A stretch of DNA of 63,842 nt, from contig DAIDAY010000002.1 of the NCBI GenBank assembly GCA_027310365.1, positions 1 to 63,842 on the forward strand, read 5' to 3'. Within the stretch, counting starts at the first letter, position 1, and the number at the start of each line of letters is the position of its first letter. A model generated the notes under the pieces. That model was not told where the DNA came from. It saw nothing but the letters and a program-made list of their open reading frames with translations, and did not search any database. Positions 13,072-30,616 of this stretch are shown piece by piece. Position numbers and translations under genes: made by a program. The stretch is from a bacterium (GTDB lineage: Bacteria; Patescibacteriota; Minisyncoccia; UBA6257; GWB1-50-10).

Positions 13072-14280
13072 TTATTTCCAGAAGAAATCTAAGATTTTCT
13101 TCTGGACATCCTCGGAGGGCGAGATAAATCCAGCAAAGCCGGATTCACTTCCGCCACCTACCCAATCACGAGGGTTACCAAGACCCGCATCATGAATCAG
13201 TTTGTTGATTTCATGATGCCGCGGGCCGAAATAAATCCACTTGTCCGGCGCAGCAACAATAAGCTCATCATAGGTGCCGAACATACGGTCGGTGTAGCAG
13301 GAAGTGTGTTTTTTGCATCGTACGATGCACTTCCTCCCGCGCCACTCCGCCGCTTGGATATCTCTGACCGCTTGGGCTTCCTCGTCGGGCGTTATGCCTT
13401 GAGCGCAGCGATCGGAGATGCGTATCGTTTCGATTTCCCCTTTCGTCGCGCCGGCTTTTTGAAGACCCGGTATCCACCACTTGTCGTTTACCGCGACAAG
13501 TTGCTGATACCGATTGAGTGGCACACCGAGTTCTTCAGCAACCTGCTCAATCGAAGATTTTTCACTCGAACGATCATCATCACTGTAAAAGTGATGATCG
13601 ATTGTCCTGCCACCCCAGCGGGCAGTGCCAGCAAGCTCCACCCCAACCACCTCGGTGTCGGGGTTTTGTGCAAGAACTTTCTCGACCCATTGCACAACCG
13701 GATTTTCCAGTTTCTCCCAGCTTGCTCCCCACGGCTGGGATGAGACAATCACGGTCTCACCGACGTCGTGAAGCAAGTTTATGATTTCGACCGCTTCAAG
13801 GTCGTTCCGGGGAACAACCCAAATTTTTTTCATTTCCTTTCCTTCCTTCGCGGAACCAGTAAACTGCATCTCGCCGTTTTCTTCCCAGGCGACACAATCT
13901 TGGTTCGCAAAAATTTTAATGTTGTAAGTAAGCTCCCTCATTCTATCGAGATCGCCGCATTTTCCTCGTGCAATCCAGATAGTTTCGGTTTGAACATCAC
14001 CCGTCGTCGAGAGTACCCACATCCCGCTTGCACATACAAGGTCAAGTAATCCGATTTTTGCAGCTTGTTGCTTAAAGAACTCAACAATTGCCACATCAAC
14101 CGGTTCGCCCGTTTTTTGAAGCGTTGGAATGTAGAGAGCGTCTCGACTATCATTTAATGCACGCCCAAACCTTTCTTGAGTTGGACCGCTTATTTGCGTC
14201 CACCAACCCATATCCGGCTCGAATGTGCATCCTCCTGTTTCCCGAACGGAAACAAAAGGATCAAAAACTAATCTCTTCAA
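13072..14280 (-). CDS. hypothetical protein, two-domain, with a DHH-like motif
   Basis: TTG start preceded by AAGGAG. The C-terminal half contains GVELAG...GGRTIDHHFYSDDD followed by SSIEQVAEELG, reminiscent of DHH phosphoesterase motif III. Motif I was not recognised, and the N-terminal 150 aa are unrecognised. Confidence 0.55.
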   Translation of the reverse strand: MKRLVFDPFVSVRETGGCTFEPDMGWWTQISGPTQERFGRALNDSRDALYIPTLQKTGEPVDVAIVEFFKQQAAKIGLLDLVCASGMWVLSTTGDVQTETIWIARGKCGDLDRMRELTYNIKIFANQDCVAWEENGEMQFTGSAKEGKEMKKIWVVPRNDLEAVEIINLLHDVGETVIVSSQPWGASWEKLENPVVQWVEKVLAQNPDTEVVGVELAGTARWGGRTIDHHFYSDDDRSSEKSSIEQVAEELGVPLNRYQQLVAVNDKWWIPGLQKAGATKGEIETIRISDRCAQGITPDEEAQAVRDIQAAEWRGRKCIVRCKKHTSCYTDRMFGTYDELIVAAPDKWIYFGPRHHEINKLIHDAGLGNPRDWVGGGSESGFAGFISPSEDVQKKILDFFWK

Positions 14281-14337
14281 TATTATTTTCTCCTTTTAAT
14301 TTGTGAGGTATGGCTTTTAGACCACACCTCGTTTTCG

Positions 14338-14775
14338 TCAATTTCCGGTTGGGGTTCCTTGACCCTCCGCTTGGAGGATCCAAACCTCCTCGCGATACCT
14401 GACGTACACGCGAGTTTGGCCCATTTTCTCACCAAGGTGGGAGGCGAGGTCATTTAACATTCCCTCGACCTCTTCGTTGGCGAGATGACTTCCGTAGAGA
14501 GGTGTAACCTCTCCTTGGAAGACAGCGTTCGGTTCGCTGCCACCGCCGGCCTTCCCATCGCCTTCCGGCCAGGCATAAACTACTTCGCCTGGCGTGAAAG
14601 TACCGGTGATGAAAGATTTCCCTAACGCGGCCCTCTCCATCATCCAGGACTTCGCCGCTTCGACCACCTCTATTAGGGTATGTTTCTTAGCGGAGTCACC
14701 GTACCCTTCCTGGGTGCCGACGGTGATGGCGAACGCGCGACGCTCGCCGCGAGAATTCTCAACAATTTTATACAT
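14338..14775 (-). CDS. hypothetical protein (145 aa)
   Basis: ATG at 14775 preceded by GGGGAGGAAAAT (a strong SD). MYKIVENSRGERRAFAITVGTQEGYGDS... shows no recognisable motif. It sits upstream of 13072..14280 on the same strand. Confidence 0.55.
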   Translation of the reverse strand: MYKIVENSRGERRAFAITVGTQEGYGDSAKKHTLIEVVEAAKSWMMERAALGKSFITGTFTPGEVVYAWPEGDGKAGGGSEPNAVFQGEVTPLYGSHLANEEVEGMLNDLASHLGEKMGQTRVYVRYREEVWILQAEGQGTPTGN

Positions 14776-14995
14776 ATTTTCCTCCCCAATATTTAACGTC
14801 GTTGGGACCGACTTTAATTGAAGAAAAAAGTTTAACATAAAGCCGAAACCTCAAGGATGTTTCAGCGCCTGCCCAGGTAGTGACCTGTTCCGCAAGCATG
14901 CCCGCTAGGGCGTAGGGAGGTTTCTTGTTTATTTTCTGGGTAAATTATGACATATATCAAGTCAAAAGTCAATATACAAATATCCTCATCGATAC

Positions 14996-15892: not shown

Positions 15893-18800
15893 ATGAAGAA
15901 GTATAATTTCAGCCGAATCGAGAAAAAGTGGCAGGCGAAGTGGCTGAAAGACAAGACGTACGAACCGAATATCGAAAAGCCCCGGAAGAAGGGGAAATTC
16001 TATAACCTTATGATGTTTCCGTACCCTTCGGCGGAAGGATTGCATGTCGGGAACATGTATGCCTTCACGGGGAGCGACATCTACGGCCGCTTCAAACGGA
16101 TGGAGGGGTACGACGTGCTCGAGCCGATCGGCTTGGACGGCTTCGGCATCCATTCGGAAAATTACGCACTGAAGGTAGGTACCCATCCGGTGAAACAATC
16201 GAAAGTTTCCGAGAAAAGGTTTTATCAGCAGCTCCGGATGATCGGGAATGGTTTTGCGTGGCAAGAACATGTTGAGACGTACGATCCCGAGTATTACCGC
16301 TGGACGCAATGGCTTTTCGTCCAGATGTGGAGGCACGGATTGGCGTACCGTAAGAAGCAGTCGGTGAACTGGTGCCCGAAGGATAAGACGGTCTTGGCCG
16401 ACGAGCAAGTCATCGCGGGAAAGTGCGAACGATGCGGCGCAGTCGTTGAAAAGAGGGAATTGGAGCAGTGGTTTTTTAAGATAACCGAATACGCCGGCAG
16501 GCTTTTGAAAAACTTGGATGCCATCGACTGGGCCGAAAAGGTGAAAATCGCCCAGCGGAATTGGATAGGGAAGTCCGAAGGTGCTCTTCTGAGATTTCGA
16601 CTGACGTCCGACGTCCCAAGTGTTGGCGTTAATATTAAGGACGTCGGACGTCCTTATCTTGAAGTTTTCACGACGCGGCCGGACACACTCTTTGGCGCGA
16701 CGTATGTGGTGCTGTCGCCTGAACACGAACTTGTTGAAAAGCTCAAAGATCGCATCTCAAATTTCAAAGAGGTTGCGGCGTATGCGAAGAAAGCGGCTGG
16801 TAAGTCGGACGAAGAACGGATTGCGGGGGGAAAAGACTTATCTTCGCATAAAGCTTCGGCGGAGCGCGGGAAAACCGGTGTTGAACTCAAGGGAATCAAA
16901 GCAATCAATCCGGCGAACGACGAAGAAATTCCCGTGTGGGTCGCTGATTACGTATTGGGCAGCTATGGCACGGGTGCGATTATGGCGGTGCCGGCCCACG
17001 ACGAGCGGGATTTTGAATTTGCGAAGAAGTTCGGCTTGCCGATCCGCCAGGTCATCGCTCTCGAGACCGGCATTCCCCGGCCCAGCGAAGAGCGTCGAGA
17101 TGGGGGATGTGGCGTCGTCTTCGACCCCCGGACTCAAAAATATGCCGTAGCCGTGCATCCCGACGGCATCGTGCGGCTCTTCGGCGGCGGATTTAATGAC
17201 GGGGAAGACGGAAGAGAAGGGACGCTTCACGAGATAGCGGAGGAAAGCGGCCTTTACGATTTCAGTCATGTGGAGGAAATCGGAACATGCTTCGCCCATT
17301 ACCGCAACCGCCGCAAGCAAGTATATCGATCGGGGTTGACGAAATGTTTTCTCGTCATTCTGCGGAGCGACAAAGTAAAAGAACGCCATCCTGAACCGCA
17401 CGAAGTAAACCTCCACCTTGAGTGGATGCCGGCGGCGGAGATTGTTAAAAATTGGAAAGGATACAACCAAGAACGCGACCTTGATCACTGGCTCGCTTTT
17501 CTTCGCGAGGGCGTAGCTCGTGCTATCGAACTTGGGTATGACACAACGAGCAATCCGGCTCATTTTCCTTCCGAGGCGCTTCTCGGTGTGGGCAAGGTTG
17601 TCAATTCGGGAAAATTCGACGGCGTAGATTCCGAAGAAGCGAAATGGGAAATCACGAAATTCGTGCATGGTGAAAAGAAAACGCAGTTCCATTTGCGCGA
17701 TTGGCTGATCTCACGCCAACGCTACTGGGGTCCGCCGATTCCGATGATCCGCTGCGAGGTGTGCGCCGCGGCAGGGAAGGGGGAAAACAAAGAAATGCCC
17801 GGCTGGTATGCCGTGCCTGAAAAGGATTTGCCGGTGAAACTTCCCATGGTCAAAGATTTCCGGCCGGAAGGGAAAGGAGAATCGCCGCTCGCTTCAGTGA
17901 AAACGTTTTACGAGGTGAAATGCCCTGCTTGCGGATCGAAAGCACAGCGCGAGACGGACGTTTCGGACACCTTTCTGGATTCTTCGTGGTACTATATCGG
18001 CTACCTCATGAAATGTAATAATGGAAAATTGAAAATTGGAGATTCCGCATTCGCGGAGCGAATGCGAGTTTGGTTGCCGGTCGACATGTACATCGGCGGC
18101 GCCGAGCATTCGGTTTTGCATCTGCTCTATTCCCGGTTCGTTTCGATGGCGCTCCATGACTGGGGGTTGGTTGATTTTGAAGAACCCTTCACGACATTCC
18201 GCGCTCATGGTCTCGTTATTAAGGAGGGTGCGAAGATGTCTAAGTCGAAAGGAAACGTGGTGAATCCCGACGAGTACATCAAGAAATTCGGGGCCGACGC
18301 GCTCCGGATGTATCTCATGTTCATGGCGCCTTTGGAGCAAGGCGGCGATTTCCGCGACAGCGGGATTTTGGGGATCACGCGTTTTCTCGATCGCGTGTGG
18401 AAGATAACTCAACGGGTGCTCGATCCGAAAAAGTCCGTGCATTCCGCTCCGGCGTTCGCCGACACGCATCATGTGCCCGATGGTTTCAAACGGATTCTCC
18501 ACAAGACGATAAAGAAAGTGACGGAAGACATCGAGAGCCTCCAATACAACACGGCGATCAGTGCCCTCATGATCCTTTTGAACGAAGCCGAGAAACAGGA
18601 AAAGGCGACCGGTTTGCCGCGTTATTTCTTCGAAGATTTTCTGAAACTGCTTGCGCCTTTCGCTCCGCACATAATGGAAGAATTGTGGCGCGAACTCGGA
18701 AACAAAAGTTCGATTCACCTTGAATCGTTGCCGGCGTATGAAGAAAAAATGCTGAAAGAAAATGCCGTCGAGGTAATCGTGCAGGTGAACGGCAAACGGC

Positions 18801-18949
18801 GCGGAAGCGTCATGGTTGAGGCGGGAACTTCGGAGGAAACTGTTCAAGACCGTGCGCTTTCGGTTGAAACCGTCGCGGCAGCCCTGAGAGGACAAAAGGT
18901 GAAGAGAGTGATATATATAAAAGGAAAGATTATTAATCTGGTTATTTGA
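15893..18949 (+). CDS. leuS: leucine--tRNA ligase with an inserted Nudix-box domain
   Basis: LHVGN (HIGH-type), [12 protein letters not shown] editing domain, [36 protein letters not shown] and KMSKSKGN. At 1018 aa it is longer than typical bacterial LeuRS because of the insert at about 17057-17596. Confidence 0.95.
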   Translation: [1018 protein letters not shown]

Positions 18950-19234
18950 GACCCTAATTTCACAGTATGCTTCAAACTGCGTTTTCAACTATTTTCACGA
19001 TGCCACAAGGCGGAGCAAGGAAGCTGTGCTTCACAGAAGTCCAGCGACGCAGCTCCAACGCTGTGGATCGAGAAAAGAGCGAAAACCCTTCGGGATACGG
19101 CCAATTTCCCCGAATCGCTGCTTCGCTCTTCCTCGGTGCATCGTCAGAGATTAATACACCTTCGTCATTGCTCATTGCGCTCAGGGAGATTGGTCAGTAT
19201 CACAGTCGAAGATACTTTGAAAATAGGGTCTAGC

Positions 19235-20194
19235 ATGTGGAAAACCATCTTTTTTATCGTAGCGATCATTCTGGTCATTGTGGCGCTGGTTTTCGTCGTG
19301 CGGCAGGTGAGCAAAAGTGCGCAGTTTGAGAACCTCGGTTCTCTCTTCAAAATTAATTTCCGCAGTCCTTCGCAGTACAACAACGGCAAGGGAAGCGTTT
19401 CGGTAAGCCAAACGAATCAGACGCCGAGTTCCAGGAGCACCACGGGCACTCTCTCATCCCCGTCATCGGGGCAAACTCCCGGCGTCGCGATCCGGAACCA
19501 AAGCTCGATAACGCCGCCGGCGGGGTTCACCGCTGCCGACCTCTCGCCCTCCTACGGCCAGGTGCGAATCGGTTCTGTCTCGGTATCCTCCGGAAGTTAT
19601 GCCCTCAAACGCGTTTCTCTCAATGCTTCATACACTCTCAAGGACCCTGTCGACGTAACGGGATGGAAATTGCAGTCAAATAAAGGAGCTATGCCGATTC
19701 CTCAAGCGATCGACGACTTTGTTCCGCCCGGATTCGGAGACAAGAAAAACATCGTTTTCCCGAGCGGCGGCCGGCTGGACATCTATAATTCATACAGCCC
19801 CGTCAGCGCCAATCTCAGAATGAACCAATGCGCCGGCTATCTGAACAATACCTACCGGTTTATTCCGACGCTCCCATGCACTTCCGTAAGCCTATACCAG
19901 CGCTCGGATATATCCACTTTCCCCGGCGACTGCCAAAGCTTTATCCTTTCTTTGGGGAGCTGCCGCATACCGACGCCCCAGCAGTTGAATGCTTTCACCT
20001 ATGAATACGAATGCCGCGCATTCCTGGATCGGTTCAACTATGCGGGCTGCTACACTCTCGAAAGAAGTTCTCCTGATTTTTTCATGAACCAATGGCTCAT
20101 CTGGTCTCCTGGCGCTTGGCCGTTCGATCCCAGCCACGATCGCGTCCTCCTCTTAGATGCCAAGGGTCTTCTCGTTGACGAATACATCTACTAA
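19235..20194 (+). CDS. membrane-anchored secreted protein with a lamin-tail-like (LTD) segment
   Basis: ATG at 19235 (MWKTIFFIVAIILVIVALVFVV signal anchor), then a Ser/Thr/Pro linker, then VRIGSVSV...VSLNASYTLKDPVDVTGWKLQS, which resembles LTD domains. Six Cys in the C-terminal half. Confidence 0.55.
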   Translation: MWKTIFFIVAIILVIVALVFVVRQVSKSAQFENLGSLFKINFRSPSQYNNGKGSVSVSQTNQTPSSRSTTGTLSSPSSGQTPGVAIRNQSSITPPAGFTAADLSPSYGQVRIGSVSVSSGSYALKRVSLNASYTLKDPVDVTGWKLQSNKGAMPIPQAIDDFVPPGFGDKKNIVFPSGGRLDIYNSYSPVSANLRMNQCAGYLNNTYRFIPTLPCTSVSLYQRSDISTFPGDCQSFILSLGSCRIPTPQQLNAFTYEYECRAFLDRFNYAGCYTLERSSPDFFMNQWLIWSPGAWPFDPSHDRVLLLDAKGLLVDEYIY

Positions 20195-28370: not shown

Positions 28371-28570
28371 CTTGCAGTGGCGGGAGGAATCAAACAACGA
28401 CCATCCGCTCTGCGGCAGATTGTCGTTCTAACACCCCTCGGTTTAGTACCTGCCTGCGCAGGCAGGTTTCCGCCGAGGGAGACCAACGCGTTCTCTCTTC
28501 GCCAACTCCTGTTCAAATCCTTCCCAGAAACCAAAACAAGACAATACAAGGCCGTCTCCTTTTGGTTTTG

Positions 28571-28657
28571 CGGAGGGTACAGGATTTGAACCTGTGAGGG
28601 GATTTCTCCCCAAGCGCATTTCGAGTGCGCCGCACTAGACCACTATGCGAACCCTCC
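28571..28657 (-). tRNA. tRNA-Ser (anticodon CGA)
   Basis: Folded by hand. Acceptor GGAGGGT/ACCCTCC, anticodon stem GCGCA/TGCGC with loop CTCGAAA, a long variable arm, and T-arm ACAGG-TTCAAAT-CCTGT. CCA is not encoded. Confidence 0.9.
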
Positions 28658-28686
28658 GTTATTTTCCATGAACAGAAGTTGGTATG

Positions 28687-28759
28687 TGCCCCCGGACGGA
28701 ATTGAACCATCATCATCCCCTTAGGACGGGGCCGCTACTGTCCGTTGAGCTACGGGGGC
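28687..28759 (-). tRNA. tRNA-Arg (anticodon CCT)
   Basis: Acceptor GCCCCCG/CGGGGGC, anticodon loop GTCCTAA, and T-arm GATGG-TTCAATT-CCGTC. The D-stem and the 27:43 pair are imperfect. Confidence 0.8.
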
Positions 28760-28940
28760 AAGATTTACCCACTCGCCGTCTCTTCATAGATACTATCGAT
28801 TTAAGAGCTTGTCAATTGGACCATTACGACTTTCTTGATGGGGATGCCGGCGTGGGGGTTATCATCAGAGCACTGCACCTTTCCAATATATCCCGCCATT
28901 CATTTACTAACCCCTGAGTATCGTAAGGAGGTGAATCGCA

Positions 28941-29312
28941 ATGCTGTCTCAAGACAAGCAACGCGATATTGTCACTGAAGCTCTTCGTCATCTCGGAAGA
29001 GAATATGATCGGGTACATTTCAACTGCCTCACGTTCGTGCGACTGGTGTATGAGAACGTTGGCCTCAAACTTCCCCCGCTTCGACTCAATATTCTGCCCT
29101 CTCAATTGACCAACCCACCAGTTGGCTTCATGCTGTATCTGAAACACAAGACCGCATCGAAGGATCGAAGATTCACTCATGTAGCCATTGTTTTGGATAA
29201 CTGCACCTGCATCCATTGTTCAAAGTTTTTCGGGAACGCAGTCGTCATAACAGAATACGAGAAACTCTTTGAGATGTACGACCTGGCCATGGAGCAAACC
29301 GGATCGGGATAA
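28941..29312 (+). CDS. NlpC/P60-like cysteine peptidase domain protein
   Basis: Strong SD (AAGGAGGTG). FNCLTFVRLVYENVG (catalytic Cys context) and THVAIVL (His). Confidence 0.6.
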   Translation: MLSQDKQRDIVTEALRHLGREYDRVHFNCLTFVRLVYENVGLKLPPLRLNILPSQLTNPPVGFMLYLKHKTASKDRRFTHVAIVLDNCTCIHCSKFFGNAVVITEYEKLFEMYDLAMEQTGSG

Positions 29313-29326
29313 TATCGCTTTTTAAT

Positions 29327-29352
29327 GGAAGTATCGGAACTACTTCCATTTT
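29327..29352 (+). terminator. rho-independent terminator
   Basis: GGAAGTA-TCGGAAC-TACTTCC followed by ATTTTT. Confidence 0.7.
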
Positions 29353-29792
29353 TATTCTCATTTTAATGAGCAAAGCTTAACACTCCATCTTTTTCCAAAG
29401 AAATAAGAGACCCCCCCAAAGGTCTCTTAAGTTATGTACAGCGGGCTGCACCCGTCTCCAATCTTCAGTTGGTGCCACTTCCTGGGTAAACAACTTTACA
29501 GTGGTCCCAGCAATGACTGAAGAAGTGGAGAGGGCTCGAGAATTATTTGTGATCAACAAAGAAACCCGGTTAGACAACTCTCAATACAACATCGAAGATT
29601 TCATCGAGGCCTGCTTGCGTTACCACGAAAATGACAGTAATATAGCTGTTGGGAAATTGAAGGAAGAAAAATAGTGAAGCTCTCCGCCTTCAAGCACGGG
29701 AGCTTCCCGGAAGCGGAATACGAGATTCGGGATGCCATCCGTTCATTCCTGCCGCACGGCGGCGGGGCTTTCCGGGCGGGGCTGGCAAAACG

Positions 29793-29864
29793 CACTCTTA
29801 GCTCAGTGGTAGAGCGTTCCCTTGACATGGGAAAGGCCGGGAGTTCGATCCTTCCAGGGTGCAC
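29793..29864 (+). tRNA. tRNA-Val (anticodon GAC)
   Basis: GCACTCT acceptor, D-arm GCTC-AGTGGTA-GAGC, anticodon stem TTCCC/GGGAA with loop TTGACAT, and T-loop TTCGATC. Confidence 0.9.
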
Positions 29865-29982
29865 ACAGATAGGATAAAAGATTCTCTTCGTGATTTTTTC
29901 ACATCAGCAGGGAAATGGGTAGCGCGAGAATCCGTTGACTCCGCATGCAAGCAGGGCTTCCTTCGGGGTATGGCCGAAGGCT

Positions 29983-30465
29983 CTAGAACCCTACCCATTC
30001 AATCAGCGTTTCAAGGAGTGTTTCTTCATACTCGCCCTCGTGAACACTCTTTCCTTCAAGAAATTTTTTTACCTCTCCCTCGATACCCTCCGCGAGGGGA
30101 ATTTTCAGATAAGGATTGGCGATCGCTTTCTTTTTCAATACCAGGATAGCGCTGCGGTGCGGCTTCGGCACAATGGCGAAGCCGCTTATGTCGGCATAGC
30201 GGTAAACCGTTTCGGAGTCGCCGATTTTGAATCCTTCACTGCTCAGTTTGAATTTCACGTTTTCCGGCTTTCGCTCACCGAGGTAGACGACCATGATGCC
30301 GCTGATAACCAGAAAAACGAAAAAAAAGAAATTCTTCTTCAGCAGCGCGAAAAGAATTATCAAGAAGAAAGCAACGGCGAAGATGGAATACCACCCTGCG
30401 CCTTTCGCCGAATAATTGAATTCGGGAGCTTCCCAAACTATTTCATTTTTTTCTGTCGCGTACAT
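29983..30465 (-). CDS. hypothetical membrane protein
   Basis: The track ORF starts at a TTG (30486); the first ATG is at 30465 (MYATEKNEIVWEAPEF). Two adjacent TM helices are followed by a soluble domain. Confidence 0.5.
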   Translation of the reverse strand: MYATEKNEIVWEAPEFNYSAKGAGWYSIFAVAFFLIILFALLKKNFFFFVFLVISGIMVVYLGERKPENVKFKLSSEGFKIGDSETVYRYADISGFAIVPKPHRSAILVLKKKAIANPYLKIPLAEGIEGEVKKFLEGKSVHEGEYEETLLETLIEWVGF

Positions 30466-30538
30466 GTAAGCCCCGAGGGGAATCAAACTCCTGTTTACGC
30501 GCTGCTGTGTTCCCCGCTTAAGTTAGACGATAAACTCT

Positions 30539-30616
30539 TGGTAGCCTCAATGGGATTCGAACCCATGTTACCGCCGTGAAAGGGCGATGTCCTGGACCGG
30601 GCTAGACGATGAGGCC
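30539..30616 (-). tRNA. tRNA-Glu (anticodon TTC), CCA encoded
   Basis: D-arm GTCT/GGAC, anticodon stem TCGCC/GGCGG with loop CTTTCAC, T-arm ATGGG-TTCGAAT-CCCAT, and 3' ACCA. The 1:72 pair is G-U. Confidence 0.85.

Follow-up and report, generated by a model that had tools for sequence, protein, structure and literature searches.

Few enzymes have been studied as intensively as the aminoacyl-tRNA synthetases, and the CP1 editing domain of leucyl-tRNA synthetase (LeuRS) is a drug target, for the benzoxaboroles. In canonical bacterial LeuRS, as represented by the enzymes of T. thermophilus (1H3N/2BYT) and E. coli (4AQ7), CP1 lies inside the Rossmann fold and carries the T-rich and AHDxRD motifs, and the KMSKS loop and the C-terminal domain complete the protein. 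Here, we describe leuS on a 63,842-nucleotide stretch of DNA from a bacterium of the Patescibacteriota (class Minisyncoccia; contig DAIDAY010000002.1 of assembly GCA_027310365.1), the whole of which is called the window below. The product of this gene shares all of these elements and is collinear with the canonical enzymes over its full length. It differs from them in a HIGH motif that reads HVGN and, compared with T. thermophilus LeuRS, in ~170 extra residues with a predicted Nudix fold that stand where that enzyme has ~10 (371–381).

The closest described systems resemble this arrangement only in part. The RppH/NudH and ApnA hydrolases (E. coli RppH, 4S2X/6D1Q; Aquifex Ap4A hydrolase, 3I7U) share with the insert the Nudix fold, at a template modelling (TM) score of ~0.6–0.75, and an aromatic X-loop residue ~16–18 positions past the Nudix box, but they are 13–18% identical to it, and scores of 12–27 bits stand against model cut-offs of 116–259. 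To our knowledge, they are never nested in a synthetase. The addition of a catalytic domain to a class Ia synthetase has a precedent in NCBIfam NF040702 ('isoleucine--tRNA ligase, N-acetyltransferase domain-containing'), in which, unlike here, the host is IleRS and the guest GNAT. A nucleotidyltransferase of the HIGH superfamily and a Nudix domain are likewise joined in one polypeptide in the bifunctional NadM-Nudix protein (NMN adenylyltransferase/ADP-ribose pyrophosphatase; NF003791, NF003790; mentioned in PMC7824862). That protein is an end-to-end fusion, not a nested one, which belongs to NAD metabolism and not to translation, and its Nudix is of the ADP-ribose class, whose Pro marker is absent from the LeuRS Nudix.

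In the literature searched, no paper describing a Nudix domain nested in LeuRS or in any other synthetase was found, and nothing relevant was found on insertions in aminoacyl-tRNA synthetases of the candidate phyla radiation or on RNase PH–RdgB fusions. A 178,000-character review of the Nudix clan never mentions a tRNA synthetase (PMC5389931), and in a 2026 survey of 213 events, the LeuRS editing domain is never a host, CP1 being classed as only ever inserted (PMC13114784).

A predicted Nudix domain within the CP1 editing domain

Between the conserved motif that ends at aa 388 and the VNSGKFDG motif that starts at aa 570, the window LeuRS has 181 residues. The alignment with T. thermophilus LeuRS stops at query residue 398 (T. 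thermophilus 371) and restarts at query residue 567 (T. thermophilus 381). The same loop has 4–91 residues, mostly 14–50, in the 66 insert-free LeuRS relatives. Secondary structure assignment (DSSP) of an AlphaFold2 model of the full-length protein (predicted local distance difference test, pLDDT, 84.6; predicted TM score, pTM, 0.75) shows the insert in place of a variable loop between strands 388–392 and 567–569, and the insertion site is apparently the tip of a beta-hairpin, in a variable surface loop of CP1. Both linkers of the insert have pLDDT values of 91–97 in this model, which suggests that the Nudix is attached to LeuRS in a fixed, not a floppy, manner.

Pfam NUDIX (PF00293) scored 26.3 bits on the full-length sequence and 27.3 bits on the insert by itself, above the gathering cut-off of 21.1, and an AlphaFold2 model of the insert, built with 48 homologues, reached a mean pLDDT of 93.4 and a pTM of 0.89. 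When this model was compared with the PDB using Foldseek, 524 matches were returned at E <= 1e-3; the best 50 of them were all Nudix-fold structures with a probability of 1.00, and the top matches (E. faecalis MutT/nudix 2AZW, AtNUDT7, E. coli RppH, Aquifex Ap4A hydrolase, DR1025 and ADP-ribose pyrophosphatases) were 12–24% identical to the insert. A profile search of PDB sequences gave remote matches only (AtNUDT7, 2e-5; NUDT6, 2e-4; lupin Ap4A hydrolase, 1e-3). Because the Pfam score exceeds the gathering cut-off, the model is confident and its structural neighbours are Nudix proteins, the insert is, as modelled, a complete, well-folded Nudix hydrolase domain within the CP1 editing domain.

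The surrounding synthetase is of the ordinary bacterial type. The leuS product scored 891.1 bits against TIGR00396 leuS_bact, above the equivalog cut-off of 548.4, and matched T. thermophilus LeuRS (1h3n) with E = 9e-209 and E. coli LeuRS with ~1e-170; its reading frame is unbroken across 1018 aa. Among 73 related LeuRS, H51 and G53 of the HVGN signature are invariant and V52 and N54 at least 90% conserved, and HVGN is, judged by this conservation, a normal HIGH variant of the clade and not a defect. The editing-motif columns T260, T261, R262, T265, D370, R372 and D373 are invariant in the same 73 relatives, as are K781, K784 and S785 of KMSKS, with M782 and S783 at least 90% conserved. Past the insert, S572, F575 and G577 are nearly invariant, R602–W612 invariant, and RDWLISRQRYWG invariant or nearly so. 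The host LeuRS keeps every synthetic and editing motif and looks functional.

The first-pass annotation of this DNA had proposed an insert of about 180 residues between the two conserved motifs, a complete Nudix fold, a Nudix box with His in place of Arg, and intact synthetase and editing motifs. The length and coordinates proved correct, as did the sequence, position and deviation of the box; the fold was borne out by the Pfam score, the pLDDT and the Foldseek search of an AlphaFold model that it had suggested, and HVGN, KMSKS, TTRPDT and AHDxRD are all present and conserved. The features of the gene are collected in Table 1.

Table 1 Coordinates of leuS and of its nested Nudix segment in the window
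Feature	Position	Strand	Basis
leuS, bacterial-type leucyl-tRNA synthetase, 1018 aa, host of the nested Nudix	15893..18949	+	Open reading frame (ORF), TIGR00396, 1h3n match
HIGH-type signature, here HVGN, aa 51–54	16043..16054	+	Conservation in 73 related LeuRS
CP1 editing domain before the insert, aa 222–388	16556..17056	+	PF13603, 2e-52, aa 222–393
TTRPDT, aa 260–265	16670..16687	+	Conserved in 73 relatives
AHDERD (AHDxRD motif), aa 368–373	16994..17011	+	Conserved in 73 relatives
Whole inserted segment, aa 389–569	17057..17599	+	T. thermophilus LeuRS alignment, loop lengths in 120 LeuRS, DSSP of full-length model
Nudix-fold domain proper (predicted), aa 394–558	17072..17566	+	hmmsearch 217.6 bits, free-standing homologues, pLDDT 93.4, Foldseek
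Nudix box GGFNDGEDGREGTLHEIAEESGL, aa 432–454	17186..17254	+	Sequence
His446 (CAC) at the canonical Arg of REUXEE	17228..17230	+	Private to the window
Tyr470, X-loop aromatic, 16 residues past the box; marker associated with ApnA hydrolases	17300..17302	+	Comparison of 115 domains
CP1 resumes: VNSGKFDG..., C-terminal helix and beta linker up to RDWLISRQRYWG	17600..17710	+	Aligns with T. thermophilus LeuRS from residue 381
KMSKS loop, aa 781–785	18233..18247	+	Conservation in 73 relatives
Anticodon-binding-type helical domain, aa 869–982	18497..18838	+	PF08264, 2.6e-23

Distribution and free-standing relatives

The full-length LeuRS was used as a query, and the best 120 LeuRS clusters were aligned with MAFFT: 54 of the 120 carry a Nudix at the loop (at least 130 residues there). 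In a scan of one genome per GTDB species, ~25 of the 80 listed LeuRS loci had a Nudix-sized insert. One such protein is named 'leucyl-tRNA synthetase/ADP-ribose pyrophosphatase' by automated annotation at JGI. The first-pass annotation, which had called for this survey of orthologs, had also cautioned that the fusion would be less novel if common and already annotated, and the caution applies, the insert being recurrent in uncultured bacteria and labelled in that one JGI entry. Its suggestion that such a fusion had not been described stands for the papers searched and not for the architecture as such, which is common in uncultured bacteria and bears the JGI label. Host and guest both belong to well-known families, and proteins with this architecture can be seen in public databases.

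A search of the 180-aa insert against 5.8 billion proteins returned 217 matches. The best 120 of these are all free-standing proteins of 165–185 aa from Paceibacterota, Minisyncoccia, Nomurabacteria and Uhrbacteria, 48–56% identical to the insert over ~91% of its length (E down to 5e-51), and the homology runs from insert residue 3 to ELGYDTTS near its end. What is nested in LeuRS is, on this comparison, in effect a whole gene. The free-standing Nudix proteins of ~170 aa (e.g. P0001, P0002 and P0119) have EERRDGGCGVVFDP, HY.N, DHW, ELGYDTTS and the Nudix box in common with the insert; unlike it, they are encoded by separate genes in nucleotide-metabolism neighbourhoods, and all have the box Arg. 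In two of the three genomes examined, the gene lies in a block of MetAP, DUF8128, NUDIX, (NDK), CYTH and adenylate kinase, and in none of the three is it next to leuS. Within the 64-kb window, neither a free-standing copy of the Nudix nor the MetAP-DUF8128-[NUDIX]-NDK-CYTH block was found.

The embedded domains fall into two classes. Class A, which includes the window, comprises inserts of ~180 aa that are 44–72% identical to the window insert; class B comprises inserts of ~156–167 aa that are 18–31% identical to it, has free-standing relatives of its own (~160 aa, 36–47% identity) and is itself made up of at least two groups with ~25% identity between them. In all-against-all comparisons, identity was 52% between embedded and free-standing class A, 35.5% between embedded and free-standing class B, and ~28% between A and B, and the best free-standing partner was of the same class for 25/25 class A and 42/45 class B domains. 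By these identities, at least two and probably three Nudix lineages occupy the same LeuRS loop, and each of them has free-standing counterparts. Class A is a small family, for which HMMER, run exhaustively on 1.84 billion representatives, found 88 matches with E <= 1e-3, 38 of them with E <= 1e-10; at least 13 of these matches are LeuRS.

Other inserts in LeuRS and other hosts of related Nudix domains

The same CP1 loop also holds other sequences. LeuRS from an Akkermansiaceae metagenome-assembled genome (MAG; L025) and a Verrucomicrobiota MAG (L069) carry there, in frame, a Y1/IS200-transposase-like domain of ~230 aa (PF01797, 37 bits for L025; the same HxHVLF...SWKSYT motif in L069), and mid-sized inserts are found in P0145 and P0157 (~90 aa), P0202 and P0223 (~131–137 aa) and L034 and L054 (117–141 aa). 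Two of the latter, P0145 and P0202, were scanned and gave no Pfam match. Because the Y1-transposase-like domain and the 90–140-aa inserts without a family also occur there, the loop is permissive, yet it is heavily biased toward Nudix.

A second CP1 insertion hot spot lies just before TTRPDT, at window aa 238–252 (nt ~16604–16648), where the window LeuRS has no insert. An alpha/beta serine hydrolase of ~190 aa (PF06821/PF12697/PF00561) is present at this site in approximately 20 relatives, whether or not the other site holds a Nudix; carriers are P0130, P0138, P0139, P0142, P0151, P0171, P0173 and P0176, and further P0185, P0187, P0188, P0193, P0221, P0227 and P0230. In P0156, a 1172-aa LeuRS from ENA, a Ham1/ITPase domain (PF01725, 59.7 bits) occupies the first CP1 site and a class B Nudix the second, which would place two nucleotide house-cleaning enzymes in one synthetase.

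Related Nudix domains are nested in other enzymes as well. Four RNase PH proteins of 424–531 aa (P0277, P0293, P0298 and P0300) have one between RNase_PH and RNase_PH_C, with phmmer E values of 4e-21 to 2e-9 against the window insert. P0325, an IleRS-type class I synthetase of 1345 aa (Anticodon_1 and DUF5915), has a NUDIX nested at aa 270–396 and also hosts a nested histidine phosphatase at aa 665–809. P0285 is a multidomain protein of 1318 aa with the order GNAT-NUDIX-GNAT-M17 aminopeptidase.

Probable substrate class and function

Specificity in Nudix enzymes is marked in the X-loop, ~17 residues past the box, by Tyr in ApnA hydrolases, Pro in ADP-ribose diphosphatases and SQPWPFPQS in NADH diphosphatases (PMC5389931). 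In the 115 domains compared, from four groups, Tyr or Phe was present at +16 to +18 in all 115; Tyr was found in 23/25 embedded and 27/30 free-standing domains of class A and in 30/45 embedded and 14/15 free-standing domains of class B. Neither the ADP-ribose pyrophosphatase Pro at +15/16 nor the NADH diphosphatase motif SQPWPFPxS downstream of the box was found in any of the 115. Of the curated models, those of NCBIfam for RppH/NudH were matched most consistently (by 49/49 members of class A and 26/26 of class B), and RppH and Ap4A hydrolase were among the best structural matches found with Foldseek. The window insert scored 12.2 bits against the RppH equivalog, below its cut-off of 118, and the best family member (E = 1.2e-7) is still far below the cut-off; the RppH/ApnA likeness is, by these scores, resemblance and not membership. 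Assignment of a substrate from solved structures or curated models was rejected, as these gave remote matches only. The markers weakly favour an ApnA-hydrolase/RppH-like enzyme over the ADP-ribose or NADH pyrophosphatases.

We consider it probable (roughly 60%) that the insert is an autonomous nucleotide-pyrophosphate house-cleaning hydrolase of the ApnA/RppH-like type, tethered to a working LeuRS. The whole of a free-standing Patescibacteria Nudix gene of ~170 aa would have become nested in the variable CP1 loop of an otherwise normal LeuRS, and the domain would act autonomously, with LeuRS as its scaffold and co-expression partner. Its function would be the house-cleaning of the nucleotide pool or of dinucleoside polyphosphates, and its most likely substrate class ApnA/RppH-like (NpnN, possibly nucleoside di- or triphosphates (NDP/NTP) or RNA 5' ends) rather than ADP-ribose/NADH. 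This reading is favoured because the X-loop and RppH resemblances coincide with the NDK, adenylate kinase (ADK) and CYTH neighbourhood of the free-standing genes and with the Ham1 co-insertions.

Several points weigh on the other side. The closest solved or curated relatives are remote, at 24% identity or less and 12–27 bits against equivalog cut-offs of more than 100; the NCBIfam matches lie largely within the box region, and with five RppH models in the set, the ranking may be generic; the X-loop marker is one residue; and the copy in the window has no box Arg. In addition, a role of LeuRS as scaffold alone leaves unexplained why at least two to three Nudix lineages occupy the same loop and why related Nudix domains have RNase PH and an IleRS-like enzyme as further hosts. 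Taken together, these two observations hint at a tRNA-linked role.

The main alternative, possible but rather unlikely, is that the Nudix is mechanistically coupled to LeuRS or tRNA and acts, from its position on CP1, at the tRNA acceptor end or on LeuRS by-products. Candidate substrates would be Ap4A/Ap3A formed from Leu-AMP and ATP, released non-cognate adenylates, and 5'-tri/diphosphate or NpnN-capped (pre-)tRNA. Coupling would fit the capture of at least two to three distinct lineages at an identical loop, the spread of the architecture across phyla (including Bacillota-type cores 81–83% identical to insert-free sisters), the confidently ordered linkers of the model, the RppH/ApnA-like resemblance, and the presence of related nested Nudix domains in two other kinds of enzyme that work on the tRNA 3' end, RNase PH and an IleRS-type synthetase. 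Against it, the free-standing relatives are linked to NDK, ADK and CYTH and not to leuS or tRNA genes, and the unrelated inserts at the same loop (Y1-transposase-like; 90–140 aa without a family match) fit a merely permissive site. Nudix chemistry, moreover, acts on a nucleoside diphosphate linked to X, a class to which aminoacyl-AMP, one of the substrates proposed beside Ap4A in the first-pass annotation, does not belong. We regard as doubtful, and hold only tentatively, the wider proposal that the Nudix recruited recurrently into LeuRS CP1, the IleRS-type enzyme and RNase PH provides an undescribed quality control at the tRNA acceptor end or on synthetase-made nucleotides; RppH-like removal of tRNA 5'-tri/diphosphate or NpnN caps and on-enzyme destruction of Ap4A or aberrant adenylates would be examples.

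Conservation of the Nudix box and the His446 substitution

The box GGFNDGEDGREGTLHEIAEESGL of the window fits GX5EX7REUXEEXGU at all specified positions but the Arg, which is His at aa 446; all four glutamates and both glycines are intact. The His is private to the window and not a family trait: Arg is present at this position in the other 24/24 class A embedded copies and in 120/120 free-standing copies, and the two codons differ by a single transition (CGC to CAC). Over the 54 embedded copies, the box residues are conserved as follows: G 52, E 48, R 48, E 52, E 54, E 53 and G 54. A few other embedded copies have degenerate boxes (in L005, for example, E is changed to Q and R to S). Since the box residues are kept in 48–54 of 54 embedded copies, the metal-binding and catalytic glutamates of the embedded Nudix are, to judge from the alignment, under purifying selection. 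In the window, the Arg-to-His change may weaken activity or may be a base-call error.

A further explanation is that this change has left the window Nudix impaired or non-catalytic, the domain being kept in CP1 for a structural role or as a regulatory module that binds a ligand. None of the other 24 embedded class A copies and none of the 120 free-standing ones has this His, and the degenerate boxes imply that the domain can persist without a canonical box. We nevertheless judge this explanation improbable: the box retains its glutamates and glycines, Arg is present in P0122, the closest relative, a single transition may stem from an error in sequencing or in the consensus, His is able to replace Arg in part as a hydrogen-bonding residue, and selection on the catalytic site is clear across the family.

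Histories of insert and host

Pairwise identities of LeuRS core and insert gave Spearman coefficients of 0.07 in class A and 0.17 in class B. The cores of P0179 and P0140 are 71% identical and their inserts 30%, whereas the cores of L013 and L014 are 49% identical and their inserts 56%. Some Bacillota-type LeuRS also carry a Nudix insert. The core of L018, the LeuRS of a Clostridia MAG, is 81–83% identical to five insert-free Clostridia LeuRS, and its 165-aa Nudix stands exactly between LPIKQVI and the NS motif, in place of a 30–45-aa loop. On the LeuRS core tree, the insert has a patchy distribution. The histories of insert and host are, by these measures, decoupled. Single capture followed by vertical inheritance was rejected, insert and core identities being essentially uncorrelated. 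We infer that this one loop has repeatedly captured Nudix domains, had them replaced or received them by lateral movement; the trees are neighbour-joining trees without support values, and the number of capture events is thus likewise inferred. Alternatively, the Nudix may have been inserted only once, long ago, and have later given rise to free-standing genes again by fission.

The decoupled histories (the coefficients and both pairs above) and the patchy distribution would also fit a self-propagating or neutral passenger cassette, spread among leuS genes by recombination via the conserved flanks and of no benefit to the host. NUDIX is, however, the sole Pfam match in the insert, where Hint/splicing (intein), homing endonuclease and transposase domains are absent (the boundaries were not searched for repeats), and the composition of the insert is close to that of the rest of the gene. 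The GC content is 0.554 in the insert versus 0.516 in the rest of leuS, and the codon-usage distance of the insert lies ~2 SD above that of equal-sized chunks of the gene. An intein or mobile element was rejected on these two grounds, domain content and composition. Catalytic residues are furthermore kept over deep divergence, which neutrality does not predict, and we hold the passenger explanation to be very improbable.

Authenticity and gene neighbourhood

The exact window LeuRS is a singleton protein cluster from one contig, and no other contig on record has this sequence. That the locus is an assembly chimera, a frameshifted pseudogene or a mis-called ORF is nevertheless effectively refuted, because 54 of the 120 LeuRS clusters carry the Nudix and the nearest relative was assembled independently with the same gene order, and because the 1018-aa frame is unbroken. 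The same junctions recur in dozens of other LeuRS (NCBI, JGI, ENA and Logan assemblies), which removes the chimera that the first-pass annotation had named as one way in which its proposal could fail. The nearest relative, P0122, is 77% identical and comes from at least two independent assemblies (one an 805-kb contig, the other from Logan); its gene order is that of the window: AI-2E transporter, MetRS, TatD, NTP-transferase, LeuRS-Nudix, a gene of unknown function and HtrA. An antisense ORF of 284 aa (16838..17692, − strand) spans the Nudix insert and has no family match; it is almost certainly spurious, as it overlaps the conserved sense frame.

Elsewhere in the window, two ORFs without a Pfam match (402 and 166 aa; 13072–14838, − strand) lie between the TatD and NTP-transferase genes, which are adjacent in the closest relative, L085; the segment may be a lineage-specific insertion of ~2 kb. 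Directly downstream of leuS, a 352-aa ORF (19136–20194, + strand) with no Pfam match has an N-terminal hydrophobic stretch and a Ser/Thr-rich region, and L085 has a 309-aa unannotated gene in the same place. Four tRNA genes (Ser-CGA, Arg-CCT, Val-GAC and Glu-TTC) are clustered at 28570–30616, and no further match in the window rose to an Rfam gathering threshold.

Implications

The interest of the architecture lies mainly in its recurrent, multi-lineage, cross-phylum capture and in the question of its function. CP1, itself an inserted domain, here contains a second enzyme, so that three domains are nested one inside another. If the Nudix is linked to tRNA or to by-products of the synthetase, it would give organisms with minimal genomes a new level of quality control in translation, and would be a third catalytic activity in a synthetase, alongside the nested Ham1/ITPase and serine hydrolase of its relatives. 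If it has no such link, it would still be a clean natural example of streamlined genomes parking housekeeping enzymes inside essential proteins, and the loop a permissive site useful for LeuRS engineering.

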